Positions 925 to 47,282 of a stretch of DNA of 64,000 nucleotides are shown one piece after another (positions within the stretch are counted from its first letter, which is position 1; each line of letters opens with the position of its first letter). The position numbers and the translations under genes are program-made. A model generated the notes under the pieces. It was given only the letters and a program-made list of their open reading frames with translations. It made no database searches and had not been told where the DNA came from. The stretch lies in UHGV virus genome UHGV-1362809. One strand, written 5' to 3'. This DNA is from a virus.

Positions 925-1605
925 ATGTCAACGCACGCTAGAATTTATGTTGTTTCTAAAGGTCACCGCACCGTTAGACTGTATCGTCACTATGACGGTA
1001 ACCCCGAAGTCACCCATCTTGATTTGATTGACAAAGTATCAACGATTAAAGCCCGCACTCCTACTGAATGGGCTAAAAAGTTGGTGCATATTCCTACTGT
1101 TAATCCCTATATAGAACAGATTAAAGAGGAAACTGGTAAGTATCCTGATAACTACACCCCACATTCTGCCTACGGTGTCGTACCAAACAGTGACGCCGAT
1201 TTGGGCGAGGAATACCAGTACACCGTCAACTTAGATACAAAGGGTATCGGTTTTAAAAAACGTCCCTTTGATGATGTTCCGAAGCATACCTGCGATGACG
1301 TAGGCAGCAACCTTGGGTATTATGTGCAGTTGTGTGAAGAAGACTACACAGAGGGTATGGAAAAATTTAATCAAGACGCCTTAAAGTTTTTTGGGGTGGA
1401 TAACATTCAACACAAGGACCAGTTTTTGCATATTGCTAAGGACTACGCAATGTTAGAATACTGTGACTTGAATGATATGTCTTTACCTTTGTCTCCTGAC
1501 TACCAATTAGACGATGCAGGTGATATACAGGATTATCTCCGTATACTGCGGGATACCATGTGCGACCTTGCTTCGATATTTACGGGTGAATTAAAAGAGT
1601 ATTGA
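925..1605 (+). CDS. hypothetical protein (226 aa)
   Basis: ORF with RBS aaaggagga 7 nt upstream of ATG. Confidence 0.6.
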   Translation: MSTHARIYVVSKGHRTVRLYRHYDGNPEVTHLDLIDKVSTIKARTPTEWAKKLVHIPTVNPYIEQIKEETGKYPDNYTPHSAYGVVPNSDADLGEEYQYTVNLDTKGIGFKKRPFDDVPKHTCDDVGSNLGYYVQLCEEDYTEGMEKFNQDALKFFGVDNIQHKDQFLHIAKDYAMLEYCDLNDMSLPLSPDYQLDDAGDIQDYLRILRDTMCDLASIFTGELKEY

Positions 1606-1645
1606 CATTCCCCTTTGGGTATGGTATATTACATACATAATCAAA
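1602..1645 (+). promoter_or_regulatory. early-type sigma70-like promoter, copy 1 (TTGACA-N17-TATATT followed by conserved ACATACATAATCAAA box)
   Basis: ttgaca 1602-1607, 17-nt spacer, tatatt 1625-1630, then acatacataatcaaa; one of six near-identical copies. Confidence 0.7.
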
Positions 1646-1684
1646 CGGGGTAACCCAAACCCCACCAACCAAAGGAGCAACGTT

Positions 1685-1834
1685 ATGAATAAAATTGAAC
1701 AAATGGACAAAGTCGATATGTATATTGAAAAAGCGTGCAGTACCGTGTGGAAATGTATTGTATGGTTTGGCATGTTGAATTTTGCAGCCATGTTAGTTCG
1801 GTTTGCCTGGGCGTTGTACCTTGGTAAAATTTAA
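1685..1834 (+). CDS. small hydrophobic protein (49 aa)
   Basis: ATG 1685 preceded by aaaggagcaacgtt; hydrophobic C-terminal half; first gene after promoter copy 1. Confidence 0.4.
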   Translation: MNKIEQMDKVDMYIEKACSTVWKCIVWFGMLNFAAMLVRFAWALYLGKI

Positions 1835-1845
1835 TGGAGGTTGAC

Positions 1846-2310
1846 ATGAACGACTGGAGACAAATTCGGGTGGAACACACCCAGCAGGTTATTAAGCGGT
1901 ACGACCGCAAATATAATCGTCGTGTGGACCGTGAACTGTTAGACCGGGAGTATAATGCGGGGCAAGCTCGCAAGTGGTTTATGAAGGAAGTCGAACTTCT
2001 TAAGGTACTTCAAGTTAACTCTACCAATCCGAAAGTCAGAGTGATTAAGCAAGCTCCATTGAACAACTTTCAAATCAAGCATATTTCAAAACAGGAAAAC
2101 GGTATTGAAGTATTGCTTGTGAACACCAACAAAAAGCAGTATGATTGCAATTTGTACGTTGTACAAGTCAACAGGAACGAGATTTCTTTTAACCTTGCCA
2201 ACGTTAAGCGTCACACTGTTCACTGTATCGACCGTTTGAATATACAACCCATCAAGCCGTCGATTATGAAGAAGGCTATCAAACGGGTAGCCAAAAAGAT
2301 CAAGGGTTGA
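1846..2310 (+). CDS. hypothetical basic protein (154 aa)
   Basis: ATG 1846 with ggagg 4 nt upstream; ORF track start 1834 overlaps the previous stop. Confidence 0.55.
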   Translation: MNDWRQIRVEHTQQVIKRYDRKYNRRVDRELLDREYNAGQARKWFMKEVELLKVLQVNSTNPKVRVIKQAPLNNFQIKHISKQENGIEVLLVNTNKKQYDCNLYVVQVNRNEISFNLANVKRHTVHCIDRLNIQPIKPSIMKKAIKRVAKKIKG

Positions 2311-2362
2311 AAACCATAGCTTATATGGTTAAATTAGCACTAGATTATAGGAGTATTTTGAA

Positions 2363-3196
2363 ATGGCTAATTTGAATGAACGTGTTGCGAAAGCTTTGGA
2401 AGGATTGACCGCCGACCAGAAAAAGATGATTCTCAACGTTATCGGTTTGATTACGGTTCCCGAAAATGACCAGCCCACCGTGTTTGACCAAAACGACGAG
2501 GACAAAAAAGTTTTCAACATCGCTGAGCTGACGGGTAAACCCAAGGCTAAGAACGATGACGAAGAAGACGACATCGAAACTGAAGGTGAGGATGAAGAAG
2601 ACATCGAAACCGCTGATGATGACTACGACATCGAAGAAGATTTGGATTCTGACTCTGAAGGTGAGGACGATGACGGCGAAGAAGACGACGATGAAGAAGA
2701 CGAAAAACCTGTGAAAAAAGGTAAGGCAAAAGATGAATACGATTTTGACGATGACGTCGAAGATGACAGCGAAGACGACGGGGAAGACGATGACGGCGAA
2801 GATGACGAAGACGACGAACCCGTGAAGAAGAAAGCTTCCACAAAGAAACCCTCTTCTAAAAACGTTAAAAAAGTACCTGTTAAAAAGGTTAAGTTTGACG
2901 GTGAAGATTTGGACACGTGGACAGTTGACACCATCAAACAGGTTAAGAAATACATCAAGGACTCCTACGGTGTTTCTTTGACGGGTAAAAACGACAAAGT
3001 AATTATTAAGACCGCTAAGGAAGTGGATGAAAAAGTCAACGCCTATTATGAAACCCTTGAAAAGAAGAAAGACTCGGTTGTAATCAAAATGGCTGAAAAA
3101 CAGGGTATCAAGCTCAAAGGTCGTTCTGAAAAAACCAAAGCTGAAAACGCAAGAGACGAATTGTTGGGTGTTTTCATTGAAGAAAACTGGGGTTAA
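2363..3196 (+). CDS. highly acidic protein (277 aa; ~100-aa D/E-rich core, Lys-rich tail)
   Basis: Translation contains long D/E runs (EDDIETEGEDEEDIETADDDYDIEEDLDSDSEGEDDDGEEDDDEEDE...); low-complexity antisense ORFs on the - strand are artefacts of this region. Confidence 0.6.
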   Translation: MANLNERVAKALEGLTADQKKMILNVIGLITVPENDQPTVFDQNDEDKKVFNIAELTGKPKAKNDDEEDDIETEGEDEEDIETADDDYDIEEDLDSDSEGEDDDGEEDDDEEDEKPVKKGKAKDEYDFDDDVEDDSEDDGEDDDGEDDEDDEPVKKKASTKKPSSKNVKKVPVKKVKFDGEDLDTWTVDTIKQVKKYIKDSYGVSLTGKNDKVIIKTAKEVDEKVNAYYETLEKKKDSVVIKMAEKQGIKLKGRSEKTKAENARDELLGVFIEENWG

Positions 3197-3252
3197 AAAC
3201 TCAACGGGGTGGGAGGTTTACTTCCACCCCAGTCAACTAAGGGAGACTTAAA

Positions 3253-3525
3253 ATGGCTGAACTCAAAGTAAATGACATCATGGTTATTAAAGCCCTGTCG
3301 AAAAAGTGCAAAGACCGTACCCAATCCGTTATCAAAGTTGTTTCTTTCAACGACAAAGACCCCGTGTTGGTTAAACAAACTTATTATAAGGACAAGGAAA
3401 GCGGTAAATGGATGCCCGGCAAGTTGAGTGGTTTTACCTATGACGACTTGTTGTTTATCAAAAATAAGCAAGACCGTGCCGAATTGTTTGAAGCCCTTAA
3501 ACCCGATATGGAAGATGAGGACTGA
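3253..3525 (+). CDS. hypothetical protein (90 aa)
   Basis: RBS aagggagacttaaa-ATG. Confidence 0.55.
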   Translation: MAELKVNDIMVIKALSKKCKDRTQSVIKVVSFNDKDPVLVKQTYYKDKESGKWMPGKLSGFTYDDLLFIKNKQDRAELFEALKPDMEDED

Positions 3526-3526
3526 T

Positions 3527-3892
3527 ATGAAACTCAAAGCAGGGCTGTGGTATTATAACAAACAACAAGACTCTTTTTTGCAGTGTCGTTTTACCGAAGG
3601 AAAGGTTACTGTTCAAACATATAGCAGGATGTCAGACTCAGATTACAATGTTTATCAAGCAGAGGACGACCGAGTTTGTATTGATGACATTCCTGAAACG
3701 ATGACCAGAGGGTATAGACCTTTTGGTAAGCTCAAAGGTAAAGGATGTTTTGTCAAAGAGAACGGTAAAACTTTTTTGGTTATCCCTAGAACCGAGTTGT
3801 TCAGAGAGCGTATTAAAGAGCAACTTCCCAAAGGGTTTGACGAAAAGGTGTTTAAGCAGTTAGCATATGAATTTCCTGATATGCTGATGTAG
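3527..3892 (+). CDS. hypothetical protein (121 aa)
   Basis: ATG 3527 directly after the previous stop with gaggac upstream; the ORF track's longer 3428 start overlaps the upstream gene out of frame. Confidence 0.5.
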   Translation: MKLKAGLWYYNKQQDSFLQCRFTEGKVTVQTYSRMSDSDYNVYQAEDDRVCIDDIPETMTRGYRPFGKLKGKGCFVKENGKTFLVIPRTELFRERIKEQLPKGFDEKVFKQLAYEFPDMLM

Positions 3893-3896
3893 GAGA

Positions 3897-3929
3897 TAGG
3901 GTGACCCGTTATGGTCACCCTATTTTTTT
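3897..3929 (+). terminator. rho-independent terminator
   Basis: agggtgacccgttatggtcaccct hairpin followed by tttttttg. Confidence 0.7.
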
Positions 3930-3931
3930 GT

Positions 3932-3975
3932 TTGACTTTCTTATTCGGTTATGGTAAATTATATACATAATCAAA
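3932..3975 (+). promoter_or_regulatory. early-type promoter, copy 2
   Basis: ttgact 3932-3937, 17-nt spacer, taaatt, then atatacataatcaaaa. Confidence 0.65.
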
Positions 3976-4013
3976 AAGGGGTTGACACCCCACCAACAAA
4001 AAGGAGAAGTGTA

Positions 4014-4241
4014 ATGTTTACGGTAAAGAAATTGGCTAAATTGGTCGAAGGCGACAAGGTTTGTATTCAGTGGAAACAGGGAGGTAATTACCGTTGGTTT
4101 ACCGCTGAAGTGACGCAGGTTAAGCAGCGCATTATCAAAGTGATGTTTGAAGCTGAAAAGTTGACGATGTCTATTTCACTCACAACAGGTTTGGCGACAG
4201 GCAACAAATACAAAGGTGCCTTTGTGTACGCAACAAACTAA
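4014..4241 (+). CDS. hypothetical protein (75 aa)
   Basis: ATG 4014 preceded by aaaaggagaagtgta. Confidence 0.5.
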   Translation: MFTVKKLAKLVEGDKVCIQWKQGGNYRWFTAEVTQVKQRIIKVMFEAEKLTMSISLTTGLATGNKYKGAFVYATN

Positions 4242-4252
4242 GGGAGGCTACC

Positions 4253-4516
4253 ATGAAACTTGCTGATTTTGATAAATGGGATGAACTTAGAAAGAAGGCA
4301 GACGAAAACACTCAAAACAAGATTCCTGTTAAGGAGGGTGATTGTGTAGCGGCTATTGACGACACTATGTACCATTTTGAAACTTTGGGTAAAAGAGACG
4401 CCTTTATAATCGGGTTAGCTTTTGGAAATCCCATTGAAAAGGTTATGACTTTATCCTATAAACACGAGCCTCTGACCGAACAGAACAAACACCGATTAAA
4501 CGAAATACACTTGTAA
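4253..4516 (+). CDS. hypothetical protein (87 aa)
   Basis: RBS aagggaggctacc-ATG. Confidence 0.5.
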   Translation: MKLADFDKWDELRKKADENTQNKIPVKEGDCVAAIDDTMYHFETLGKRDAFIIGLAFGNPIEKVMTLSYKHEPLTEQNKHRLNEIHL

Positions 4517-4632
4517 AGGGAGGCTACCATTAAACTAATACGCATTGAGCCTCATCAGAGATTTGGGTAAGAGCAAAGGTATGTATGGTCGCTTGTACAG
4601 TGCATTGAAAGAGGCTGACAGAATAAAAAGAA

Positions 4633-4827
4633 ATGATGGTAAACTTATCTGAATATTTTGAACAATATCGTTTTGAACCAATTACTACTTATACAGTAGA
4701 TAAAATAAAACATGATTTGAATGAGATTGTTCCCGATTTTTATCCTAACTGGGCGGTTAGACTTTTTAACAACCCATTACAAATAGAAATTTCATACAAC
4801 GGGAAAATAGTTTGTGTTTTGAAGTAA
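4633..4827 (+). CDS. hypothetical protein (64 aa)
   Basis: ORF in an AT-rich stretch; weak RBS. Confidence 0.35.
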   Translation: MMVNLSEYFEQYRFEPITTYTVDKIKHDLNEIVPDFYPNWAVRLFNNPLQIEISYNGKIVCVLK

Positions 4828-4961
4828 TGGAATACTTTCAAAAATTCTTTTGATTTCCTTATTCATATCTTATAACATAATTATATGAAAGGGATAAAGA
4901 TAATCTGTAAAGTAGTCAATGACTCAAGAGGAGAAAAAGAAATAATGAAAGTGCAAACAAG

Positions 4962-5642
4962 GTGGAGGGAATGAACATGACTAAAGAACAAGTTAATGAT
5001 TACGAAGAATATGATGATGAAGACGAATACGAAGCTCCTATAAGAAAAACTATTCCAGAGCTCCTAAAATATATTGCTGAGATTAAAGGAAAAATTAAAA
5101 GGGGTTTGCTTTCTTTTTATAAGGAAATTAAACCTAAAGAAGATAAATATCATGGTGCAGACTATGATTATGACTGGATTTCCGAGGACATACTTGAAAT
5201 TGTCCAAGATATAGATAATGATAAACTAAAGAATGCTTATAAAAAATACAAGAAGTGGGAAAGCGAAGCAGAACTCATTAGTGATGAAGAAGAGTACAAT
5301 GAAGAGTATGCCGATGTTGATCTAATGATTCCTTTTGAAATTCAAGACTTACTTAGAGCGCTTCATGCTTGGACAGATAATTACTACTATGCTAAAAAGA
5401 AAGTCCAAGAAGAGAAAGATTATAAGTCAGCAGAGAAAAATTTAACCACTTTTGCTAAAAGTGGTACTCTAACTAAAGAAGAAGCAAACTGCATTACTCT
5501 TATTTTTAGTGAGGATGTTAAAAACTATAAATTCATGAAAGACTATATTGTAAATGTCTTGAATAAACTTATAGTAGAAAACTTGAACAATAGCATTGAG
5601 CAACACTTAATTTGGGCTGTACAGTATATAAAAGGTTTATAA
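4962..5642 (+). CDS. hypothetical protein with acidic N-terminus (226 aa)
   Basis: RBS ggtggagggaatgaac-ATG; DYEEYDDEDEYE stretch. Confidence 0.5.
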   Translation: MEGMNMTKEQVNDYEEYDDEDEYEAPIRKTIPELLKYIAEIKGKIKRGLLSFYKEIKPKEDKYHGADYDYDWISEDILEIVQDIDNDKLKNAYKKYKKWESEAELISDEEEYNEEYADVDLMIPFEIQDLLRALHAWTDNYYYAKKKVQEEKDYKSAEKNLTTFAKSGTLTKEEANCITLIFSEDVKNYKFMKDYIVNVLNKLIVENLNNSIEQHLIWAVQYIKGL

Positions 5643-5645
5643 TAC

Positions 5646-5690
5646 TTGACATGCTAAATTAGATATGATATAGTATATACATAATGAACA
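5646..5690 (+). promoter_or_regulatory. early-type promoter, copy 3
   Basis: ttgaca 5646-5651, 17-nt spacer, tatagt, then atatacataatgaaca. Confidence 0.6.
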
Positions 5691-5885
5691 TTGAAAACAA
5701 GGGAGAATAGTTATGACTCGTGCAAGTTAAAGCGGAAATCAGACATCTGGCAAACCATTATAGTTTTTATGGACGGTTGTTGGAAGCCTTAAATGAAGTA
5801 TCTGAAGAAGACCAGAATGCCTTTTATGACCAGTTTAAAGGCTGCAAAGACGAAATCGACCTTATTATGCAAGTGGAGGCATAGA

Positions 5886-6104
5886 ATGAATATCAAAATG
5901 AAAATGGGACGTTGGTATCGTCGTAAAAGTTGGGCTGCAGGTACAGCTATTTTGGTTGATACAATGGACAACAGACCTTCGTTTACGTTATACCGCAAGG
6001 GGCAACTGATTAAACGGGATTATCCTTTGATTGCGGACGACATATTTGCAACGGATTGGGTTGACCACAGCCGTTTTGCTATTCATTATAGGGGGTTGTT
6101 ATGA
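5886..6104 (+). CDS. hypothetical protein (72 aa)
   Basis: ATG 5886 with ggagg RBS. The upstream part of the track ORF 5793..6104 is more likely a separate small ORF in another frame (approx. 5720-5884, GTG start). Confidence 0.35.
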   Translation: MNIKMKMGRWYRRKSWAAGTAILVDTMDNRPSFTLYRKGQLIKRDYPLIADDIFATDWVDHSRFAIHYRGLL

Positions 6105-7042
6105 AGTCATGTTATAGAGGTGTACAAAAAAATGGATGCTTTTATGTTGTCAATGTGCCTAAGGTTCTCTTCCCTACAGTAGGAAAGTACAGTGTTTCTT
6201 TTAGAACAATAGAAGAGGCTATTAAACAAAAAGAGGAATGGCATAACCTTTATTGGGTGAAGACCCCCAACTCTGTTGATAATGAGGAAGACTACGGTAT
6301 AGATTGGTCTATTATTGAAAACCAGTTTGCTCAGTTAAAAGGTAAATCCTCTATAGATAGTTCCCTCTTAAAGGCTGTAAAGCAACAGCTGTTTGGTCTC
6401 GTATCCATAAATAGTAGATTTAGGTTTTATGTACACTTTCCCACCTGTACAAGGACTTATGCTTTGAGAACGGAAGACGATATTCCCTTAGTTAAAAATA
6501 CTTTGATTAAAGCTCACTATGATATAAGCAAAGGGAATCATATTAAGAGGGATAAGCTTAACATCAAGGCTTGTGAGGAATATAGAAAAGACTGCACCCA
6601 TATAGCTTTTACAGGTAAAAGTTATGTAGTGAGTTTACCTACGAGTATTCCTTCTGACCTTAAGATAAGTAAGACCAAGTTTGCAAAGTATGAGGACGCT
6701 AAAGCTCTAAGAGATTCCTTGGCGCATTATTATAAATGCACTCGTAATAGAGGTGGCTGTATTCCTTATTTTAGAGAATACTCTAAAGAAAAGAGTGACA
6801 GTTTACCTAATGACCTTGAAATAAAACTTGAAGCTCTTAAGTGTCTTGCACGCCCAGATACGGATACCCACTACGCAGAAGACGTTTATATTTTAAACGA
6901 AAAAGACCATACTTATCATCATCTTGGTCCTTGTTCCAAGTTTGAAATTTTGACAAGCATTGTTAAATGCGGAACTTCCGAGGTAGTGGTTTTGTCAAAG
7001 AGTGATGACCGAACTTACAAGGTTTTAAACATTCTCACCTAA
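6101..7042 (+). CDS. hypothetical protein (313 aa)
   Basis: Long ORF with ATGA overlap to the previous gene. Confidence 0.5.
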   Translation: MKSCYRGVQKNGCFYVVNVPKVLFPTVGKYSVSFRTIEEAIKQKEEWHNLYWVKTPNSVDNEEDYGIDWSIIENQFAQLKGKSSIDSSLLKAVKQQLFGLVSINSRFRFYVHFPTCTRTYALRTEDDIPLVKNTLIKAHYDISKGNHIKRDKLNIKACEEYRKDCTHIAFTGKSYVVSLPTSIPSDLKISKTKFAKYEDAKALRDSLAHYYKCTRNRGGCIPYFREYSKEKSDSLPNDLEIKLEALKCLARPDTDTHYAEDVYILNEKDHTYHHLGPCSKFEILTSIVKCGTSEVVVLSKSDDRTYKVLNILT

Positions 7043-7051
7043 CTAATGCAA

Positions 7052-7081
7052 ATGGGGTATCGAAAGGTATCCCATTTTTTG
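7052..7081 (+). terminator. rho-independent terminator
   Basis: tggggtatcgaaaggtatccca hairpin (two G-U pairs) followed by tttttt. Confidence 0.55.
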
Positions 7082-7082
7082 T

Positions 7083-7127
7083 TTGACATTCTCATTTTGG
7101 TATGGTATAGTTTACGCATAATCAAAC
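7083..7127 (+). promoter_or_regulatory. early-type promoter, copy 4
   Basis: ttgaca 7083-7088, 17-nt spacer, tatagt, then ttacgcataatcaaacg. Confidence 0.65.
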
Positions 7128-7156
7128 GTAAACGACCAACCCGAAGGAGAACAACC

Positions 7157-7276
7157 ATGATTAAACGAGGAAGAAAAATTCGCAGAAGAACAACCCCGAG
7201 ACTGTCAAACTATGTAGCTCAAGTGGAAAAATACTGCAAGGTAAAGAGCGTGGGTTTATTGACGTTGACCGTTTAA
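7157..7276 (+). CDS. small highly basic protein (39 aa)
   Basis: ATG 7157 after ccgaaggagaacaacc; Arg/Lys-rich. Confidence 0.3.
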   Translation: MIKRGRKIRRRTTPRLSNYVAQVEKYCKVKSVGLLTLTV

Positions 7277-7281
7277 CCCAG

Positions 7282-7476
7282 TTGACTTCCTTGTTTAACC
7301 CTTTACAAGGGAACGACTTTTACAACGTTGTGGATATTGTCACTTTGGCGTTTAGTCAAAGAAAGCTCATCGCACGAGTCAATGAAGATAACGTCGAGTT
7401 TGATACCTATCAGGACTACGGTAGTGCAATGAGCGATGTGTTTTACATTATAGCTAAAGACAAAGGGTTGGTTTAA
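7282..7476 (+). CDS. hypothetical protein (64 aa)
   Basis: ORF. Confidence 0.4.
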   Translation: MTSLFNPLQGNDFYNVVDIVTLAFSQRKLIARVNEDNVEFDTYQDYGSAMSDVFYIIAKDKGLV

Positions 7477-7488
7477 CAGGAGGAATCC

Positions 7489-9507: not shown

Positions 9508-9535
9508 AAACATGCCTATCTATGTGAATCAAAAG

Positions 9536-9580
9536 TTGACAAACTGATAAGAGTATGTTATATTACATACATAATCAAAC
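9536..9580 (+). promoter_or_regulatory. early-type promoter, copy 5
   Basis: ttgaca 9536-9541, 17-nt spacer, tatatt, then acatacataatcaaacg. Confidence 0.7.
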
Positions 9581-9619
9581 GAACCCAAAGGGGTTTAACC
9601 AACCAAAAGGAGAAGAATC

Positions 9620-9928
9620 ATGACTACCGTTAGAACTAACAACTTTGACAAATTGTTTACCCCTTCATATATTGAAGAATTACGCAAAAAACGCGGATTG
9701 CTGGGTCACCGTGTTGATAACACTTTTGAACGTTTCGACACAGTTTGGATTGAACTTGGCAAAGACAACGAAGTTCTTTCGACCATGCGTATAGTAGAAA
9801 CTCGTACTTCAGAAGGCTTCACTTGTTTCGTACTGGCTAAAGATGCCAGCACCGGCGCAACAACCCAGTCAGTCACCACAGGTGATACTCTGAAAACCGC
9901 CTTTACTGACGTTCTTAAAAAAGGTTAA
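9620..9928 (+). CDS. hypothetical protein (102 aa)
   Basis: RBS ccaaaaggagaagaatc-ATG. Confidence 0.55.
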   Translation: MTTVRTNNFDKLFTPSYIEELRKKRGLLGHRVDNTFERFDTVWIELGKDNEVLSTMRIVETRTSEGFTCFVLAKDASTGATTQSVTTGDTLKTAFTDVLKKG

Positions 9929-9952
9929 TATACAGCACAGAGGAGGGGAACA

Positions 9953-10186
9953 ATGAAACCGTGGTTGCTTATACCTTTTATGTTGACTGGCTGCACAGAG
10001 TTAGCAGCTACGGTTTATTGCGCACCTATGGTAGTTCTCAACCCTATACAGGGACCAACTTTTTGTAAATCTTTGTATGGCTCTATACCACAAGAACTCG
10101 AAACAAGCTGTGTAATGGGTGACTGGGAAGCGTGCGACAAACTTGAAGAGTTGAAAAATAAGGAGGAGGGTAAAAATGAAAGTTAA
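9953..10186 (+). CDS. putative lipoprotein (77 aa)
   Basis: N-terminal signal peptide with lipobox LTGC; RBS gaggagggg. Confidence 0.5.
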   Translation: MKPWLLIPFMLTGCTELAATVYCAPMVVLNPIQGPTFCKSLYGSIPQELETSCVMGDWEACDKLEELKNKEEGKNES

Positions 10187-10592
10187 TCCCGTAGGATGTG
10201 TTTGTATGTGGATACATAGCCACATGTTCGGAACTGATTGGTTTGAAGTGAAAGTTGCCTACACCATGGAAAGCCTTAACCAACTGTTTGAAAAACTCAA
10301 GACCGAAAAAGTAGAATTTGCATACGGTCGTAAAACTCTGAAGTGTTTTAAATTTGGTGAAGACTTTAAAAAACCAGAATATGGAGCAGTATTTTGCAGT
10401 AAGAATCAGCACTGTACAGACATATCGCAGTTAGAATTTACTTATGATTCTACCCCTGCCCATAAATTGACTAAACGTTATGTAAAGGATCATAGCCATG
10501 GTTTTTATCCCGACCACTTGACTACCTTTAGAAAGGATAGATACTGGTATTTCCCTTGCGTTTCTATAATATCAACTTTTGAGGAGCAATAA
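10176..10592 (+). CDS. hypothetical protein (138 aa)
   Basis: RBS aaggaggagggtaaaa-ATG. Confidence 0.5.
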   Translation: MKVNPVGCVCMWIHSHMFGTDWFEVKVAYTMESLNQLFEKLKTEKVEFAYGRKTLKCFKFGEDFKKPEYGAVFCSKNQHCTDISQLEFTYDSTPAHKLTKRYVKDHSHGFYPDHLTTFRKDRYWYFPCVSIISTFEEQ

Positions 10593-10914
10593 AATGAATC
10601 CTATCGCTTGCATCGTTATTCGTAAAGACAATGACTACATCGTTTCAGTTGCTGGTACTCCAAAACAGTTAAAGGATCAGTACAAACAGGCTAAGGATAA
10701 AGTAGCATCTTTCCCTGCATCGGATTGGTCGTTGACCGTTTTTGAATTGGGCACGCCCGATTTTGTTCCCTTGCACGGAGCTGTTGTACTCACGGACGAT
10801 GGTTGGAAGTATTACACTCGTCACAACATTGACAAAAAAGGTGCCTCCTTGTATGATGGTGCCAAAATGTTTCGACCCTGTGTCGATACCATAGACCTTG
10901 ATGTGCTGGATTGA
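10579..10914 (+). CDS. hypothetical protein, tandem paralogue A (111 aa)
   Basis: MNPIACIVIRKDNDYIV...DDGWKYYTRHN is homologous to the next gene. Confidence 0.55.
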   Translation: MRSNKMNPIACIVIRKDNDYIVSVAGTPKQLKDQYKQAKDKVASFPASDWSLTVFELGTPDFVPLHGAVVLTDDGWKYYTRHNIDKKGASLYDGAKMFRPCVDTIDLDVLD

Positions 10915-10930
10915 TAATAGGAGGTAGGCA

Positions 10931-11257
10931 ATGAATCCTAAGTTTTGCGTCGTAATTCGTAAGGACAACGATTATATCGTTCGGGTATCGGACACAATGG
11001 AGGACTTGAAACAACAATACAAAGAGTCCAAAAAAGAAACTGAATCATTTTCGACCTATGACTGGTCTTTGACTACCTATGCTCTTGGTAGTCCTGCTTA
11101 TCATAACGTCGATGAAAATGGTGTGATTGTGCAGTATCCTGACGGATGGAAATACTATACTCGTAACGCTTTTAGGCGAAAAGGTACCGCTGTATATGAA
11201 AATGCTTCTTCAGTTCGACCTTGTCTACACATGATATTCCTACGTGACTTAGTATGA
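10931..11257 (+). CDS. hypothetical protein, tandem paralogue B (108 aa)
   Basis: MNPKFCVVIRKDNDYIV...PDGWKYYTRNA; RBS taggaggtaggca-ATG. Confidence 0.55.
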   Translation: MNPKFCVVIRKDNDYIVRVSDTMEDLKQQYKESKKETESFSTYDWSLTTYALGSPAYHNVDENGVIVQYPDGWKYYTRNAFRRKGTAVYENASSVRPCLHMIFLRDLV

Positions 11258-11261
11258 CTAA

Positions 11262-11285
11262 TGGGAGGTAATACCTCCCATTTTT
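11262..11285 (+). terminator. terminator-like hairpin with T-tract
   Basis: tgggaggtaatacctccca followed by ttttt, immediately before the RBS of the next gene. Confidence 0.5.
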
Positions 11286-11296
11286 AAGGAGTGACT

Positions 11297-12376
11297 ATGA
11301 ATTTAGATAATTTATCAAACATATCAGACACCACAGATGTCTCCCATTGTTTTGACGTACCGAATTTACATCATCTATCCTTTGGTCGTCTTAAAGTACT
11401 ATGGGAAGCAGGATTTCCTATAACGGGTATTTCTGTACAAAAAGGTTTAGACCACACAGATTACACTATGTACTCTCTGTTGCTCAACTGTGAGTGTATG
11501 AGTATATCTGAAGCTAATTATATCCTGTGGTGCCAAATTCTTGAACAGTTGCAAGACCCTCCTGCACAGTTATTGAGTGCCTTTTCGGTGCAGGCTGCTT
11601 CTGTAAATGAATTTTTGATGGATACCCTGTATCAGCGTAGTATTTGTTGTTTGTCAGCCTACCGTAAATACGAAGGTGTTCTGGAGAAAGAAATGCAACG
11701 CATCAACACCGAGAATAGTAATACGCTTCAACAGGCACTTAAACAGACAGGAAGACTTGTTATAAAATTACAAGGTATGTTTAGAGAGCAGAATGAGTTT
11801 GGAGATACTGTCGATAATCCTGACGAAGTTTCCTACTTGGTGATTTCTAATAAGAATGAGGACACTATGTCCTTTGTTGATTCAATGTTTGTTTTTGGTA
11901 AACAATATAATCAAAACAGTATTTTGATAAGAGAAAAGGATGATAAAAACGCATACTATCTTGGCTGTTGCGGGGTACTAAATCCTACAACATTTGCTCC
12001 TGGATTGGGCAATAAAGCTAAAATAGGAGTATTATTACCTTACAAAATGCTAGATTATTGTTCGGTCCCTTACAAATACAAAAGAGACAAAGACGGTTAT
12101 GTATACAAGTTAGACTACAATGATGCTTTCGCCTTTGATACCGAGTCAGTAAAACTGCCCAAGTTTAATAGTAGCTATTGGAAAAGATTGGATTCTAATG
12201 TTTGCTCCTACGAACATCCTACCTTTGGTAGTCCTAAATTCTATCGGTGGAAGGTTATTAAGAACGGTGTAATGTATGGAGGAGTTGAAAATAATTACAA
12301 CCAGGCTAAAAGAATGGTCGTAAAAGTTAAAAGCGGTAAATTTGTGCCAAATCAATACAAAATCGGTGTGGTGTAA
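11297..12376 (+). CDS. hypothetical protein (359 aa)
   Basis: ATG 11297 after taaggagtgact; no recognisable motif. Confidence 0.55.
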   Translation: MNLDNLSNISDTTDVSHCFDVPNLHHLSFGRLKVLWEAGFPITGISVQKGLDHTDYTMYSLLLNCECMSISEANYILWCQILEQLQDPPAQLLSAFSVQAASVNEFLMDTLYQRSICCLSAYRKYEGVLEKEMQRINTENSNTLQQALKQTGRLVIKLQGMFREQNEFGDTVDNPDEVSYLVISNKNEDTMSFVDSMFVFGKQYNQNSILIREKDDKNAYYLGCCGVLNPTTFAPGLGNKAKIGVLLPYKMLDYCSVPYKYKRDKDGYVYKLDYNDAFAFDTESVKLPKFNSSYWKRLDSNVCSYEHPTFGSPKFYRWKVIKNGVMYGGVENNYNQAKRMVVKVKSGKFVPNQYKIGVV

Positions 12377-12404
12377 ATATACAGTGTAGTAAAGGAGTAA
12401 TAAT

Positions 12405-13250
12405 ATGAATATTACATTAGCTCAGTCCCCATTTTTCTCGGTTCAAGGAGAAGGGATTTATGTAGGGGTTCCCAGCGTGTTTGTGCGTTTGACACATTGC
12501 ACGTTGGACTGTAAAGGTTTTGGACAATGTCATCCTAAGGACCCGTCCACTTATAAATCTAACCCTGTACAACACATCGACAGTTTAGACCAGTATGAAA
12601 CCCCAAAATATGGGTGTGATACCTCTTATGCAAAAGATCCAGAGTTTGAACACTTGTGGATTCATACTGACACTGAGTCCTTGGCTAAAATGTGCGCAGA
12701 CTTAGTTGAAGGTTCTTTTACTAAAAATGGTAGCGACATACATCTGGTCATTACAGGCGGGGAACCTATGTTATACCAAGAGGCTATTGCGCACTTATTG
12801 ACTATTTTGTATAACAAGTACGACCTTAGGAATTGTACGATTGAAACCAATGGCACAGTGCCTCTCAAACCATATTTGGTGTTCACCCCCGTCAGGATAT
12901 TTATGTCTGTAAGTCCTAAGCTGCATTGTTGCTCCGGTGTACCTAATGACAAAGCTATTAAACCTGCCGTAGTACAAAAATACATACGATACTTTGATGG
13001 ACAGCTTAAATTTGTGTGTGGTAAGGATCCCGAAGTGTGGAAAGAAATGTTGACTGTGCTGGGTGAGTACGGTGTGCAAGATGGTTATAATAGTTCGCAT
13101 AATTGGACAACAGTGGTGATGCCTGTTGGTAGCGATATGCAACAAATGGAGGAAAATGCAACCTATGTCGCTGAAAAGTGTATGCACTATGGACTGCGTT
13201 TTACCCCTCGTTTGCATATTTACTTGTGGAAAAATTCTTATAACACTTGA
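12405..13250 (+). CDS. queE: 7-carboxy-7-deazaguanine synthase-like radical-SAM protein (QueE family)
   Basis: N-terminus FFSVQGEGIYVGVPSVFVRLTHC matches the QueE signature. Internal ITGGEP...IETNGT...SVSPKL...TPRLHIY also match QueE blocks. The cysteine cluster spacing is unusual (C-x3-C-x5-C). Confidence 0.75.
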   Translation: MNITLAQSPFFSVQGEGIYVGVPSVFVRLTHCTLDCKGFGQCHPKDPSTYKSNPVQHIDSLDQYETPKYGCDTSYAKDPEFEHLWIHTDTESLAKMCADLVEGSFTKNGSDIHLVITGGEPMLYQEAIAHLLTILYNKYDLRNCTIETNGTVPLKPYLVFTPVRIFMSVSPKLHCCSGVPNDKAIKPAVVQKYIRYFDGQLKFVCGKDPEVWKEMLTVLGEYGVQDGYNSSHNWTTVVMPVGSDMQQMEENATYVAEKCMHYGLRFTPRLHIYLWKNSYNT

Positions 13251-13315
13251 TTAAATGTTGTAAATAACGATGTACAATATTGTACGAGTTTTTGCAAAAA
13301 CTTTGGAGTATAAAA

Positions 13316-14119
13316 ATGGCAAAATATATCATAAACAATGGGTGTGCGTACCCTTCTCGTCTGATTTCAAAAATCGAACCTTCTGTCATGGAAACGACGG
13401 TTAGATGTTCCTCGATTGATTTGCTTAATGTTAATCGTGCTTCCTATATTGACGTTGTTTTTAATGTGTATGTTGATGGGGTTAAAGGAGCTACGCAGTT
13501 TAGACACCCTGCTAATGGTTCTGTTGAATCCGTTTACTTGCCTGAGGATGAAGACTTCGTGGAATGGTTGTCGGAACAGCAGTTGAAAAGCGGTAAAGAC
13601 CCTATCAAAGTGTTCAAAAATGCGGTACTCAAAGTCAACCGTATCAAAATGGCTATTGCAGAATGTGAAAAGGCAAAACAGTCTAATGAAAAAATCGTTG
13701 AAACGGTTGCACCAGTTGTTCAGCAAGCAGAAGCTCCCGTAGCCGTTGACTTGAAGCCTCGTGTTGATGGCGAGATAGTTGACCTTGACGTAGCTTTGAA
13801 AGACTTGTCGGAAGAACCCGAACTGCTTTTTGAGCCGCAAATCGTTGCTCCTAAGTCTGAAACGTTTGTCAATGAGGAACTGGAAGAATTTAATCAGCCT
13901 ACTGTTTCTGACGAAGACATGCATTTGTTGCACAAGAAAACAGCTTTCATTGAAAAAATGACGGCTAACTATATCGCAGCGGTTAATGCACTTGAACCCG
14001 AAACCAAATTGATTACAGCAGTTGGTCGTAAACAGCCTGATGAGTTGACCGAATACGAAGAAACCATCGTTTCCTTAACGATGAAAGAATTTGCTGAAGA
14101 TTTATTGGGAGAGGTATAA
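13316..14119 (+). CDS. hypothetical protein (267 aa)
   Basis: ATG 13316 with ggagtataaaa upstream; the ORF track's 13280 start lacks an RBS. Confidence 0.55.
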   Translation: MAKYIINNGCAYPSRLISKIEPSVMETTVRCSSIDLLNVNRASYIDVVFNVYVDGVKGATQFRHPANGSVESVYLPEDEDFVEWLSEQQLKSGKDPIKVFKNAVLKVNRIKMAIAECEKAKQSNEKIVETVAPVVQQAEAPVAVDLKPRVDGEIVDLDVALKDLSEEPELLFEPQIVAPKSETFVNEELEEFNQPTVSDEDMHLLHKKTAFIEKMTANYIAAVNALEPETKLITAVGRKQPDELTEYEETIVSLTMKEFAEDLLGEV

Positions 14120-14362
14120 ATGACTCCTTATAAAGGTTGGTTAATAGCCCGAATGAGTGAGCAAGCTACAGGAGGCTTCATTGTACGTGGAGCCTCCCGA
14201 GGTTTGTTTGAGGGTAAAGTAGTGTCCATAGATGCAGACACTAAGGATATTAAAGTGGGTGATACAGTAGTGGCTCCGACGAATGAATGCTTTGAATATA
14301 GCCATCATTCGGAAGGTTTGTTGTACTTTGTACCTCTTAAGCATATCGTAGGTGTTGAATAA
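14120..14362 (+). CDS. groES: co-chaperonin GroES-like (80 aa)
   Basis: Size and pattern of GroES (mobile-loop-like TGGFIVRGASRG, KVGDTVV, C-terminal HIVGVE). Sits immediately upstream of the GroEL-like gene with a TAATG overlap. Confidence 0.7.
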   Translation: MTPYKGWLIARMSEQATGGFIVRGASRGLFEGKVVSIDADTKDIKVGDTVVAPTNECFEYSHHSEGLLYFVPLKHIVGVE

Positions 14363-15987
14363 TGTCACAGGTTATTTTAAGTGGAGACCAGAACAGAACT
14401 GAACTGTTGGAAGGTCTTAAAATTATGGCTGAAACAGTAGGTAGTACTTTGGGTCCTAAGGGTCTCAATGTTATTTTGCAAACTGAATTTGGTGCGCCCC
14501 ATATTACTAAGGACGGTGTTTCAGTCGCTCGTGAAATTAAACTCGATGGTGTGCAGGGATTAGGTGCATCATTGGTTAAGGAAGCTGCTAATAAGGCTGC
14601 TGTTGTCGGTGACGGTACGACTACAAGTTCTGTTTTGGCGTATGAAATTGCACGTCAAGGTATGACAAGCGCAGCCTATACCAACAAGTTTGGTATCAAA
14701 CGTGGTATTGAAGCAGCGTTAAAGGACATTGTGTCTAAACTTGAAGATAACACCATTCAAGTTAAAGATTCCAGCGACGTGTATAATATTGCGTTGGTAT
14801 CGGCTAATCATGATGAATCCATTGCTGAGCTATTTAAAAAGGCGTTTGAGTTGTCAGGCAAGGATGGTGTTATTGTTGTTCAAAAAACAAACAACTCTGA
14901 AACGACTTGCGAACGTGTGGAAGGTATGCAGTTTGACCGTGGATTTTTGAGGTCGATATTTATCAACGACTTTGAAAAACAGGAATGTCGCTTTGAACAC
15001 CCAAATATTGTGTTCGTGGATGGTAAACTCGACAGTCTGATTGAGCTTAGTACATTTTTTAATTCTAATGGAAAGGCTTTGGTTGAAAAACCATTGGTTA
15101 TTGTGGCGGAAGACTTCGATGCCCCTATCGTCGGCACCTTTGTTGAAAACCGTGTGCAGAGTGGTACGAGAGTATTGCTGGTTAAGGCTCCTGGATTTGG
15201 TGACCGTCGTAAAGACCACTTGGCTGACTTGTGTGCCTTTACTGGTGCAACCCTTATTTCTGAAGAGCAAGGTTTGTCGTTGGGTAAATGCACGATGGAA
15301 CACATGGGTCACTGCGATGTGTGGGTTTCGGACTTTGATAAGTCAACTATTCTTGGTGGTAAGTTTGATGAGACCCAGTTAGAAGATGCTAAAAAAGCTA
15401 TTCGTGGTCTTATTGAACGTGCTATTACCGACGTTGACCGCAATCGTTACAAAGAACGTTTGGCTCGTTTATCTGATGGTGTTGTTTCCATTTCGATTGG
15501 CGGTAATACCGATGTTGAAATCAAAGAGTTGTGCGACCGTATTGATGATGCCTTGTGTGCTGTAAAAGCTGCCGTCAAGGGTGGTTATACTGTAGGCGGC
15601 GGTATTGCACTTCTTAAAGCCTCGACTGAATGTGCTAATCCGTTTGACGTTGGCTCATCAGAACATATCGGCTACAACATTCTGCTCAACTGTTGTAAGG
15701 CCCCGTTGAAAAAGATTTGTGCTAATGTTGGTAATGACGATTTTACTCCCGACTATGTTGTTAGTACAGTGCTGCATAGCATAAAGAATGGACAGTCTAA
15801 TTTTGGGTTTGACGCAAAAGAGGAACACTTTGTTCAAAATATGCTAGACCATGGTATTATTGATCCAACGGACGTTGTTATCAGTAGTATCACCTGTGCA
15901 GTTTCCGCTTCTACTTTGTTGTTGAGTTCAGGATGCTCTGTACTACGACCCGAAGAAAAGAAGTGCGACTGTAAGTGTGGCAAGTAA
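14362..15987 (+). CDS. groEL: chaperonin GroEL-like (541 aa)
   Basis: Conserved Hsp60 blocks: GPKG(L)NV, AVVGDGTTTSSVLA (ATP-binding GDGTTT motif), equatorial and apical domain patterns. Confidence 0.9.
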   Translation: MSQVILSGDQNRTELLEGLKIMAETVGSTLGPKGLNVILQTEFGAPHITKDGVSVAREIKLDGVQGLGASLVKEAANKAAVVGDGTTTSSVLAYEIARQGMTSAAYTNKFGIKRGIEAALKDIVSKLEDNTIQVKDSSDVYNIALVSANHDESIAELFKKAFELSGKDGVIVVQKTNNSETTCERVEGMQFDRGFLRSIFINDFEKQECRFEHPNIVFVDGKLDSLIELSTFFNSNGKALVEKPLVIVAEDFDAPIVGTFVENRVQSGTRVLLVKAPGFGDRRKDHLADLCAFTGATLISEEQGLSLGKCTMEHMGHCDVWVSDFDKSTILGGKFDETQLEDAKKAIRGLIERAITDVDRNRYKERLARLSDGVVSISIGGNTDVEIKELCDRIDDALCAVKAAVKGGYTVGGGIALLKASTECANPFDVGSSEHIGYNILLNCCKAPLKKICANVGNDDFTPDYVVSTVLHSIKNGQSNFGFDAKEEHFVQNMLDHGIIDPTDVVISSITCAVSASTLLLSSGCSVLRPEEKKCDCKCGK

Positions 15988-16101
15988 TTTGCATAAAATA
16001 CTCTCAATGTAAATATTGTAAATAATCGTGGGTGTATGGTATATGCCTACAACATTTACTCCTTTTATGTTGTGTGTGAGTCAAGGGGTTGAAAATACCC
16101 C

Positions 16102-16146
16102 TTGACTTATTAAATAAGAGGTGGTATAGTATATACATAATCGAGG
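16102..16146 (+). promoter_or_regulatory. early-type promoter, copy 6, heading the RNA-rich region
   Basis: ttgact 16102-16107, 17-nt spacer, tatagt, then atatacataatcgagg. Confidence 0.6.
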
Positions 16147-16812
16147 TTGAAACGAGGTGCGAAGACCGAGTTAAAACCAGTTGACAATGGTCAAGGATTA
16201 TGGTATTGTAAATACACAATGCAACGAGTTGTTAGACACTGTTAATATGAACCCACAAGATGTAGTCAACCTTTTCGTGGTTTGTGGGATAAGTAAGTAC
16301 TGGGTTTCTTGTGTGTGATTTACCTCGCACGTCTCATACCGTACCGTGGCTGAAACTAATAGACTATTTACCTATGTAGGTGGGTAATGAGATACTATAA
16401 AGCCCTCGTTATGTTGTGCAAAGGGAGGGTGGATATACGTACTATTGGTGGAGTCAATGACGACACGATAACAATTAAGGCCTTATCATGAAGAGTGGCG
16501 CACTTTGTAATTGATGCTTGAGACTGTGAAACCTGTTTTACAATGTGTATCGCTTACAACATACGCATCGAGTTCGTGCGAGAGGTGAACATCCTCGGTT
16601 CACCAGAACTCACCCCTTTACGATTTAAAAATCGGTTGGCGGTTTAATCCCTCGACTCCTTTTATCAAGCGGAGGATTGTTGAAGTATGTAAAATACGGT
16701 CTAAGTACTAAACCATATTTTTTCTGTACTATATTATACGTGGATAAATGGAGCGTACCGAGTTAGTGCGTTAGGTAGAAATACCATAACTCTTCCTTTT
16801 GGTGGTCTAAAC

Positions 16813-16889
16813 CCCCTTGTAGCTTAGGCGGTTAAAGCAGTGGTCTTATAAACCAAAGAGCAGAGGTTCAAGTCCTCTCAAGGGGACCA
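16813..16889 (+). tRNA. tRNA with UAU anticodon (Ile-like), CCA encoded
   Basis: Manual cloverleaf: acceptor ccccttg/caagggg, D-arm gctt-aggcggtta-aagc, anticodon loop cttataa, T-arm agagg-ttcaagt-cctct, discriminator A plus cca. Confidence 0.6.
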
Positions 16890-16900
16890 ACAAACTTTAT

Positions 16901-16945
16901 GGAAACGTTGGTGTACAAAGTATAGGTTCGATTCCTATGGTTTCC
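16901..16945 (+). ncRNA. tRNA-like minihelix (acceptor-like stem plus T-arm, no D or anticodon arms), followed by T9 run
   Basis: ggaaac...tatagg-ttcgatt-cctat...gtttcc, then gttattgttttttttt; may act as a terminator or processing signal. Confidence 0.4.
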
Positions 16946-17358
16946 GTTATTGTTTTTTTTTAGTCTTGTTAGATACAATGCGAGTTTGGGCTCCTTTCAG
17001 TTGACGGAATGAGTGCTAGTATAATGTGGTTGCGATGCTGGTAAGACAGCGGTCCAGACTCTGTTTTCATTGTATAACGTTGTTTAATTATACCGTCCTC
17101 ATTCCGTCAGACCTGTAATGTAAGTACCTCCACGTGGTACAGGTTGGGTGCCTATTTTTAGGTAGCTAAAACTTACACACTCTTCTTTAAGTTGGTTAGA
17201 ACACCTGCTGGTTTACTTTGTGTTTGTCAGCAGGTTGACTGGTTGAAAGAACTGCCTCCTCGTGGCACCAGTCGGGTAGTGTGTTTTACACACGAGCTAA
17301 AAGTTCAAGCTTCAGACTGACGAGTCTGAATGATGATTGGATGATGAGTATATTATAG

Positions 17359-17441: not shown

Positions 17442-17447
17442 TATATC

Positions 17448-29792: not shown

Positions 29793-29821
29793 TTGACATT
29801 TACCTATTTTTGTGTTAGAAT
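29793..29821 (+). promoter_or_regulatory. sigma70-like promoter
   Basis: ttgaca, 17-nt spacer, tagaat. Confidence 0.5.
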
Positions 29822-29843
29822 TACAACATAATAGGAGGTGTGT

Positions 29844-47281: not shown

Positions 47282-47282
47282 A

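Follow-up and report, generated by a model that had tools for sequence, protein, structure and literature searches.

The first 64,000 nt of the viral genome UHGV-1362809 (hereafter the window) carry a recurrent promoter element, in which near-consensus -35 and -10 hexamers are followed by a conserved box around the predicted start of transcription. Comparison of the copies supports their description as versions of a single composite promoter of sigma70/sigmaA type, in which a segment downstream is conserved as well. At least 10 or 11 copies occur, all on one strand and within ~23 kb, in the apparent early region of a large phage. We are confident that they represent strong host-type promoter cassettes of one temporal class. 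On balance, we favour a more specific reading, in which they are early promoter/leader cassettes resembling the PeSL repeats of phages RB49 and phi1, read by the host primary-sigma holoenzyme, with the box acting as a start-site and initial transcribed sequence (ITS) module that is predicted to control promoter escape and to give rise to a sigma-dependent pause. The box most likely acts at the level of RNA polymerase, and less likely as an RNA signal or as the site of a dedicated regulator.

A preliminary description of the window had listed six elements, at 1602, 3932, 5646, 7083, 9536 and 16102, and all six were confirmed on the plus strand. The pattern TTGACW-N17-TAWAKT-N5-CATAAT matches exactly these six positions in the window, with no match in any of 100 dinucleotide-preserving shuffles. 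The near-consensus -35/-10 and the 17-nt spacer noted there are borne out, the -10 of the copy at 3932 being TAAATT. The exact box string ACATAATCAAA was found to be present in only half of the copies (at 1635, 3965 and 9569), the others carrying the variants GCATAATCAAA (7083), ACATAATGAAC (5646) and ACATAATCGAG (16102); the part of the box that is invariant in all six is CATAAT. Similarly, a leader ending in an AAGGAG-type sequence is seen in four of the six, while 5646 has AAGGGAG and 16102, which leads into RNA genes, has no Shine-Dalgarno (SD) sequence. The set of six also proved incomplete. A weight matrix built from these copies was scanned over ~82 kb of the 237-kb genome (~155 kb lie outside the scan), including 9,076 bp that precede window nt 1 and were obtained from a permuted assembly (locus L087). 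This revealed a degenerate tandem copy at 16181 and four copies upstream of the window, at L087 positions 2680, 3207, 8556 and 9000. Within the scanned DNA, all copies are on the plus strand, and the ~56 kb that extend from 16.2 to 72 kb contain none. For the -35, the six copies and 16181 have TTGACA or TTGACT, and L087:8556 has TTGACC; the spacer is exactly 17 nt in all copies, and the -10 of the six is TATATT, TATAGT or TAAATT. An extended -10, which the preliminary description did not mention, is also present: in each of the six, a single base separates a TG from the -10 (TATG in five, GGTG at 16102), and 10 of the 11 copies have TATG or TGTG at this position, 16102 being the exception. The window contains further TG-extended promoters at 32146, 39740 and 41685 that do not carry the full box.

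The size of ~45 bp originally assigned to the element was not borne out, as the repeated unit is a cassette of ~100 bp, with conservation extending from about -45 to +55. Each unit opens with a terminator hairpin and its T-run, or with a gene end, and continues with TTGACA and a 17-nt spacer whose last bases are TATGg. Then come TATAnT, five bases that vary, CATAAT and CAAAC, after which a 5-6-bp G/C hairpin may be present, and finally ACCAACCAAAAGGAG, ~6 nt and the ATG; the leader length is mostly 47-49 nt. It had been stated that each copy follows a terminator or gene end, and this is indeed the case: hairpins are found at 3891-3928 and 7050-7077 (directly 5' of 3932 and 7083), gene ends at 1605, 5642 and 9507, and 16102 is immediately preceded by a G/C hairpin. 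Terminator hairpins also occur directly 5' of L087 2680 and 9000. The copies precede small genes, or the tRNA/RNA region in the case of copy 6, again as described. The first genes after the copies encode ORFans of 39-108 aa, for which no Pfam or PHROG family match was found, except for one sub-threshold anti-defence-like match. Reportedly, the TRTG '-16 region' or TGn extended -10 is a Gram-positive feature, which Voskuil and Chambliss are said to have described in 1998. Both the promoters and the ribosome-binding sites appear to be of Gram-positive (Bacillota) type, and the host would be of that type too.

Mean pairwise identity among the 11 copies is highest in the -35 (0.92), followed by the +1 to +10 segment (0.78), the -10 (0.76), TRTGn (0.72) and the discriminator (0.62); the spacer (0.45) is the least conserved part of the promoter, and the upstream flank has an identity of 0.28. 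The box is as constrained as the -10, since its identity is 0.78 compared with 0.76, while the spacer and flank of the same cassettes have drifted. The gut phage is represented by a metagenomic contig of 237,166 bp, of which the window covers nt 1-64000, and by two further independent assemblies of 237,192 and 237,238 bp. The three are 99.96-100% identical, and the assemblies are therefore uninformative on substitutions.

The start of transcription is predicted at the A of C-A-T, with a 6-nt discriminator; with this assumed +1, a Y-R(+1)-Y start fits all six copies. CATAAT then spans -1 to +5 and matches TATAAT at five of six positions, including the critical A2 and T6, while its first base lies exactly 11 bp, or one helical turn, past the first base of the -10. 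A second hexamer occurs at exactly +11 in 10 of the 11 early-region promoters (CATAAT, or CACAAT in 16181), and the ITS, AUAAUCAAAC, is A-rich and unstructured. In a genome-wide study of sigma70-dependent promoter-proximal pauses in E. coli, these were associated with a canonical -10, a 6-7-nt spacer and a YR+1Y start (Sun et al. 2021; PMC7876045). Pauses at +16-20 were linked to a -10-like region at a conserved 11 bp past the -10, an arrangement equated with lambda pR' and lac (PMC7876045). The preliminary description considered the box dispensable for sigma70 recognition, which is not supported in that form, as a Y-R(+1)-Y start and a -10-like hexamer are sequences read by holoenzyme/sigma in promoters of the lambda pR', lac and E. 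coli G1d class (PMC7876045). The B. subtilis sigmaA has been reported to be retained on elongating polymerase (PMC12478191), and such hexamers would therefore be effective in a Gram-positive host. Furthermore, the first ~10 bases of the transcript alter output ~10-fold to 1000-fold at strong or escape-limited promoters (PMC12464699; PMC5961368). We also considered CATAAT as the -10 of an overlapping alternative promoter. This was rejected, as CATAAT is preceded by neither a TG nor, at a suitable spacing, a -35-like hexamer.

Graded relatives of the phage were found by means of a ligase search, and the DNA around several of these was compared. Gene content around the ligase differs between the window phage and its relatives. 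Those at 63-66% ligase identity (L099/L100, L101/L102 and L104) have a GC content of 33% as opposed to 39-40% here, have several small early genes in common with the window, and carry the same promoter type. A -10-like hexamer, defined as having A2, T6 and at least 4/6 matches at 9-11 bp after the -10 start, is present at +9 to +11 in 10 of 12 promoters of the relatives, compared with ~8/47 (~17%) in unrelated phage contigs where consensus promoters abound (Fisher p = 3×10⁻⁵); such hexamers are essentially absent at other offsets. The sequences found are CATAAT, CATACT, TATACT, TAAAAT, AATAAT, GAAAAT and CAGAAT. Calculated from the relatives only, the information content amounts to 1.84 bits per position in the -35, 1.54 in the -10, 1.43 in TRTGn, 1.38 in the second hexamer and 1.02 in the next six bases (YGAAA/CAAAC), compared with 0.86 in the spacer and ~0.45 in the distal leader. 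The hexamer is kept in separate genomes, and has therefore been maintained between genomes rather than only homogenised within one. Among more distant relatives, L103 (47% ligase identity) retains only an AATCGAA motif, displaced downstream, and L105 and L106 (34-37%) are different phages without this promoter type. A possible likeness of AATCGAA or AATTGAAAC to the Spo0A 0A-box (TGTCGAA) or to a CodY box was discarded, with only 4-5/7 positions agreeing by eye and a worse agreement in the window phage (AATCAAA).

The box is not restricted to this lineage. We searched IMG/VR, a collection that does not contain this phage, for TATGNTAWANT-NN-ATACATAATC and obtained 84 stretches, which fall into 22 clusters and ~11 independent promoter-like lineages. 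When the same 10-mer was displaced by +4, 16 stretches (mostly coding) were found, and at +8 there were none; four composition-matched permutations at the true offset yielded 2, 1, 2 and 4. The Poisson probability of at least 11 at a mean of 2.25 is 2×10⁻⁵. Comparison of the window proteins with the IMG/VR contigs carrying the box revealed no match, except for a weak partial ligase match in L031. Among the phages recovered, aquatic T4-like myoviruses (gp32 match, L063) carry multi-copy TGTACA-N12/13-TATGGTATAAT-ATATACATAATCAAG promoters with the same box. Recurrence in unrelated phages argues against a lineage-specific regulator as the main cause of conservation, and provides modest but real evidence that the box sequence suits RNA polymerase itself. 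This does not amount to a universal box of Firmicute phage promoters, an idea that was rejected: contig L053 contains 16 consensus promoters on one strand and L005 contains 12 on both strands, with the box on one promoter each and the hexamer at background. A scan of a genome collection with the full -10 and box string returned one match, identical to contig L053. In a metagenome motif scan, the contig of this phage was absent among the matches listed, whose number was close to chance by a rough estimate for an AT-rich, ~terabase database, and the scan was not used as a measure of enrichment.

Two additional promoter types were encountered during these searches. In addition to the TGTACA-type promoter with the box, aquatic contigs L008, L018, L020, L027, L035 and L039, from the same family as L063, have a second multi-copy promoter class, TATGGTATAAT-TAATACTGTAACCAACCAATAGA, whose ACTG(N)AAC and AACCAACCAA strings resemble variants of the window lineage (ATACTGAAAAC; ACCAACCAAAAGGAG), possibly by coincidence. 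At least 12 metagenome contigs (L135, L144, L152, L155, L166 and others), several of them labelled human gut, contain one identical promoter, TTTACA-N17-TGGTATAAT-AATAC-CATAATCAAA-GGCATTTAGCAACAGGAGG…ATG. The gene behind this TTTACA-type promoter is widespread, and the promoter has the same second hexamer at +11.

A comparison of individual segments reveals that the cassettes are mosaic, with the nearest neighbours of the copies switching between segments. The -10 and discriminator of 9536 are identical to those of 1602 (12/12), while its leader is that of L087:3207 (30/30). The spacer of 1602 is nearest to that of 7083 (0.82) and its leader to that of L087:9000 (28/30), whereas the -10 and discriminator of L087:9000 are those of 7083 (12/12). 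The first codons of the downstream genes are common to some copies, and L087 2680/9000 and 3207/8556 are parts of segmental duplications that include the gene start. The switching of neighbours would be expected if parts were exchanged between cassettes to the left and to the right of an invariant box. A similar situation has been described for the PeSL of RB49 and phi1, which are ~100-bp repeats that combine a sigma70 early promoter with a GGGG…CCCC stem-loop and flank ORFans (Arbiol et al. 2010; PMC2839356). Copies of PeSL recombine between the -10 and the SD/ATG (PMC2839356). Both systems comprise ~100-bp composite repeats with a consensus sigma70-type early promoter, an AT/T-rich tract 5' of the -35 and a stem-loop or terminator, clustered among ORFans in a plastic early region, and the mosaic copies seen here would fit an exchange like that of PeSL. 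In contrast to PeSL, the cassettes belong to an unrelated lineage with a different presumed host type and have no sequence homology to PeSL; in addition, PeSL has no described start-site/second -10 box, and the stem-loop is here represented by the upstream terminator or by the optional leader hairpin.

Megablast against GenBank phages identified no close relative of the window phage, and the best protein identities are below 40%. Recognisable genes include those for an NAD-dependent ligase, QueE/QueD, GroEL, a split topoisomerase II and SbcD, and the proteins indicate a large (jumbo) phage that is not of T4 type. With no close DNA match to deposited phages and with non-T4-type proteins, the cassette is to be regarded as an analogue of PeSL as opposed to a member, and the resemblance is functional, not homologous.

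In the mechanism we favour, a terminator or gene end would insulate each cassette from upstream transcription, and each cassette would drive a short ORFan operon, with one of them driving the tRNA/RNA block. TTGACA, the 17-nt spacer and TATAnT, together with its TRTG extension, would be recognised by the primary-sigma holoenzyme of the host. The box would form the rest of the polymerase-read promoter, comprising a discriminator ending in C, the start A, the second hexamer and the ITS. This module would fix the start site and govern escape from a near-consensus, escape-limited promoter, and the second hexamer would re-engage sigma to give a promoter-proximal pause at about +16 to +20, as at lambda pR', lac and G1d. 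Recombination between cassettes would keep the copies alike and at the same time reshuffled, with the invariant box as common junction. Of the three roles proposed for the box in the preliminary description, an initial-transcribed-region signal is best supported by these data; a regulator site is weakened, and an RNase site is without support because the leaders have no common structure.

Several points weigh against this mechanism. The enrichment test in IMG/VR consisted of four permutations and involved manual cluster collapsing. In L101 the hexamer is shifted by 1 bp in three promoters and by 2 bp in a fourth, which loosens the exact 11-bp rule, and an nAnnnT hexamer is not rare in AT-rich DNA, as 11% of promoters from unrelated phages have one at +11. 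Conservation continues past the hexamer (CAAAC here, YGAAA in the relatives), at 1.02 bits, and these bases are unexplained by a pause model. Recombination rather than selection could account for part of the within-genome identity. A scan of 27 early-region proteins identified no recognisable regulator, DNA-binding domain or Q/antiterminator family, nor is there a conserved spacer sequence that resembles a Q-binding element; with no Q-like factor found, the purpose of a pause is therefore speculative. To our knowledge, E. coli is the only species with a genome-wide map of sigma-dependent pausing at elements of this kind. For the window phage we infer the early timing, the +1 position (from the usual 7-nt distance), the host type and any effect on pausing or escape.

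Alternatively, the box could be an operator, where a phage or host DNA-binding protein bound at about -6 to +10 blocks or modulates polymerase and so shuts off or times the early promoters jointly. A position across the start site would be ideal for steric repression, and the two -10-like hexamers 11 bp apart could be direct-repeat half-sites. The box is also confined to one promoter class and a ~23-kb region, the promoters at 32146, 39740 and 41685 lacking the full sequence, and the conserved CAAAC/YGAAA that a pause leaves unexplained would count in favour of such a site. A relative encodes a small Sigma70_r4-like (helix-turn-helix) protein (L099 6916-7341, 141 aa), located just 5' of one L099 promoter and borderline for Sigma70 region 4 (24.0 bits against a cutoff of 24.1), but no homologue was found in 82 kb of the window phage. 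No DNA-binding domain was detected in the 27 early-region proteins scanned. Furthermore, the box has no dyad symmetry, and its distance from the -10 varies by 1-2 bp in the relatives. With its offset preserved, the 10-mer is also found in ~11 unrelated lineages, including aquatic T4-like myoviruses that have no proteins in common with the window phage, compared with 1-4 for the permuted controls. We consider an operator unlikely for these reasons. It is also improbable that the box is devoid of a function of its own, with recent duplicates homogenised by PeSL-like recombination or gene conversion and the box simply the longest common tract. The segmental duplications that extend into the gene start, a mosaic structure that suggests ongoing exchange, and the position of PeSL crossovers between -10 and SD/ATG (PMC2839356) are all compatible with homogenisation. 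Yet spacer and flank have diverged (0.45 and 0.28) in the very cassettes where the box has not (0.78), the hexamer is retained at 63-66% ligase identity, where leaders differ, and the same sequence is enriched in unrelated phages.

A third alternative places the function in the RNA, with the 5' end common to all early transcripts, AUAAUCAAAC, recognised by an RNase, an RNA-binding protein or the translation machinery to affect early mRNA stability or translation. To assess the leaders, we folded 11 of these: a hairpin at +11 to +27 is predicted in five of the eight from this phage, while the other three and all three from relatives are unstructured. The box, the SD and the AUG are unpaired in every fold, and folding z-scores are unremarkable. 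A conserved leader RNA structure, or nut-like boxA/boxB elements, were rejected on these grounds, the hairpin being optional and absent in relatives and the z-scores non-significant. A conserved segment that is predicted to be transcribed and single-stranded in every fold would suit an RNA signal, as would A/C-rich leaders with ACCAACCAAAAGGAG in common before the start codon. However, copy 6 and 16181 retain the box and drive tRNA/non-coding RNA without an SD, which rules out a role limited to translation. The most conserved part in the relatives is the hexamer straddling -1 to +5, and invariance of A2 and T6 is typical of sigma DNA recognition, while no structure is conserved. The hairpin starts ~10 nt from the 5' end, too far for a 5'-terminal protective stem given what is generally known of RNase J and RNase E. 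This leads us to view an RNA signal as very unlikely.

A bolder version of the polymerase-level reading holds that every early promoter of the lineage carries a lambda-pR'-type pause signal for loading a phage factor unlike known Q, with the terminators between cassettes read through, so that one protein would turn many short immediate-early transcripts into long delayed-early ones. We regard this as quite unlikely; if true, it would mean that promoter-proximal pausing governs the timing of expression throughout the genome of a phage of a Gram-positive host, with sigmaA unreleased in elongation. Phage early-promoter cassettes and the -10-like pause architecture are each already known, and what is unusual is a second hexamer on all early promoters of a lineage. 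Should our favoured reading be correct, an uncultured jumbo phage would have standardised its whole early programme on one promoter module, providing at least 10 natural copies for studying ITS and sigma-dependent pausing at very strong Gram-positive-type promoters. It would likewise carry the PeSL concept, of repeated promoter/terminator cassettes that serve as recombination linkers for the shuffling of ORFans, beyond T4-type coliphages into an unrelated lineage. The cassette is also a compact candidate for a strong promoter/5'UTR part, and the motif could mark early regions in related metagenomic phages.

Comparison with other promoters places the module in context. It shares with lambda pR', lacUV5 and G1d a -10-like hexamer at 11 bp, and its predicted Y-R(+1)-Y start, 6 nt past a canonical -10, would fit the same layout (PMC7876045). 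In contrast, lambda pR' is a single late promoter used for Q loading, whereas here every early promoter has the hexamer, and the DNA scanned revealed neither a Q-like factor nor its binding element; the host sigma is probably a Gram-positive sigmaA as opposed to sigma70, and pausing is a prediction from sequence. With the strong, escape-limited promoters T5 N25 and T7 A1, the cassettes have in common near-consensus elements, an A-U start (a predicted one in the cassettes) and an A/purine-rich non-template ITS, in a setting where +1 to +10 helps to set output (PMC12464699; PMC5961368). N25 and A1 are single coliphage promoters that were studied biochemically, while here the same ITS is found on at least 10 promoters and is kept across the lineage. 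A '+7 TTGA' homology among T5 early promoters is said to have been noted by Gentz and Bujard in 1985, and serves as a lead only. The early promoters of T4-like phages similarly occur in many copies, with conservation beyond the hexamers (an A-rich upstream tract and -3 to -1), and are placed 5' of ORFans and tRNA genes (Nolan et al. 2006; PMC1524935). These differ from the cassettes in their -35 type (GTTTAC or TGTACA) and in their hosts, and no protein homology to the window phage was found.

All features of the individual copies are on the plus strand. Copy 1 (1602..1684) consists of TTGACA, the 17-nt spacer with TATG, TATATT, ACATA, CATAAT, CAAAC, the hairpin GGGGTAACCCAAACCCC and ACCAACCAAAGGAG; its -35 overlaps the stop codon of the gene at 925-1605, and a 49-aa ORFan starts at ATG 1685. 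An intrinsic-terminator-like hairpin with T-run (3891..3928) directly precedes copy 2 (3932..4013), which has TTGACT, a 17-nt spacer, TAAATT, ATATA, CATAAT, CAAAA, the hairpin GGGGTTGACACCCC and ACCAACAAAAAGGAG, followed by a gene of 75 aa from ATG 4014. Copy 3 (5646..5712) comprises TTGACA, 17 nt, TATAGT, ATATA, CATAAT, GAACATTGAAAAC and AAGGGAG, with an unstructured leader. Directly 5' of copy 4 (7083..7156) is a terminator-like hairpin with T-run (7050..7077); the copy itself reads TTGACA, 17 nt, TATAGT, TTACG, CATAAT, CAAAC and GAAGGAG, has no leader hairpin, and is followed by ATG 7157. In copy 5 (9536..9619), TTGACA, 17 nt, TATATT, ACATA, CATAAT and CAAAC are followed by the hairpin GAACCCAAAGGGGTTT and AACCAACCAAAAGGAG, with a 102-aa gene from ATG 9620. 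Copy 6 (16102..16146) has TTGACT, 17 nt, TATAGT, ATATA, CATAAT and CGAGG, is without SD, and heads the tRNA/non-coding RNA region at 16.1-19.6 kb. The degenerate tandem copy (16181..16226), 79 bp past copy 6, reads TTGACA, 17 nt, TATTGT, AAATA, CACAAT and GCAAC, with A2/T6 of the hexamer retained. A partial relative is located outside the cluster at 29793..29843, with TTGACA, 17 nt, TAGAAT, TACAA and CATAAT running directly into an SD (AGGAGG) and a gene start at 29844; it has the second hexamer at +11 in common with the cassettes, but not CAAAC or the leader.

Two of the genes downstream of the copies have disrupted reading frames. Behind copy 3, the well-placed ATG opens only a 5-codon ORF (MTRAS*, 5713-5730), which overlaps a conserved frame from GTG 5720. 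The orthologue in a relative begins MTRKQVKAEIR…, and the window frame from GTG 5720 (to 5884) is 74% identical to it, with a 2-nt difference at codon 4; expression would need either a restart at the GTG, 14 nt from the SD, or a +1 frameshift. The gene after copy 4 (7157-7476) is split, with the frame from ATG 7157 (…SNYVAQVEK…) running to a stop at 7276 and homology continuing in the -1 frame (…KILQGKERGFIDVDR…) to 7476. Two paralogous L099 proteins (…EYIKKVEKVLEGK…) are homologues, and the junction, GTGGAAAAATACTG, contains a run of five A's. The 11.6-kb stretch with this gene is 100% identical in the other assemblies, and the split is a candidate for either programmed -1 frameshifting/slippage or a 1-nt indel pseudogene. 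A Tad2-like (anti-Thoeris) domain was detected at 5793-6104 below threshold (E=0.0016; 19.4 bits against a cutoff of 25), and this may be an early anti-defence gene.

The region at 16100-19640, headed by the tandem promoters 16102/16181, comprises ~3.5 kb that are almost ORF-free. It contains Rfam-grade genes for tRNA Ile-TAT (16813-16889) and tRNA Arg-TCT (18915-18991), and ARAGORN additionally predicts tRNA Leu-AAG (19320-19402) and an aberrant 'tRNA-???' (17358-17442). T-arm-like GGTTCGATTCCTAT sequences are seen around 16925 and 17423, and a degenerate version, GGTTAAACCCTAT, around 17510. A search of the whole window with Rfam returned only tRNAs and no other family at E<0.1, leaving ~2.5 kb of presumably transcribed RNA without an assigned role. 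Within the tRNA region, a 197-aa ORF (17903-18496) has a weak match to NUMOD3 (E=0.007, below the family cutoff), a DNA-binding motif of homing endonucleases, and may represent a mobile endonuclease inserted among the tRNA genes.

Most ORFs of the window (95/104) are on the plus strand. The JGI and ENA BRIT16 assemblies open the presumably circular genome at an identical base, 41 nt past the predicted start of cassette L087:9000, and the shared break at window nt 1 is explained most simply by a repeat that interrupted assembly, as opposed to a physical end of the genome. Other genes encode an S-adenosylmethionine (SAM)-lyase-like protein (11291-12376), a QueE-like radical-SAM protein (12405-13250) and QueD/PTPS (22369-22845), which suggest SAM degradation (anti-restriction) and a 7-deazaguanine DNA-modification pathway. 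Both topoisomerase II subunit genes (44120-49763) carry HNH-endonuclease-like insertions, and in the relative L103 (47% ligase identity) intein/LAGLIDADG signatures are found in the GyrB-like gene at 16916-17374.

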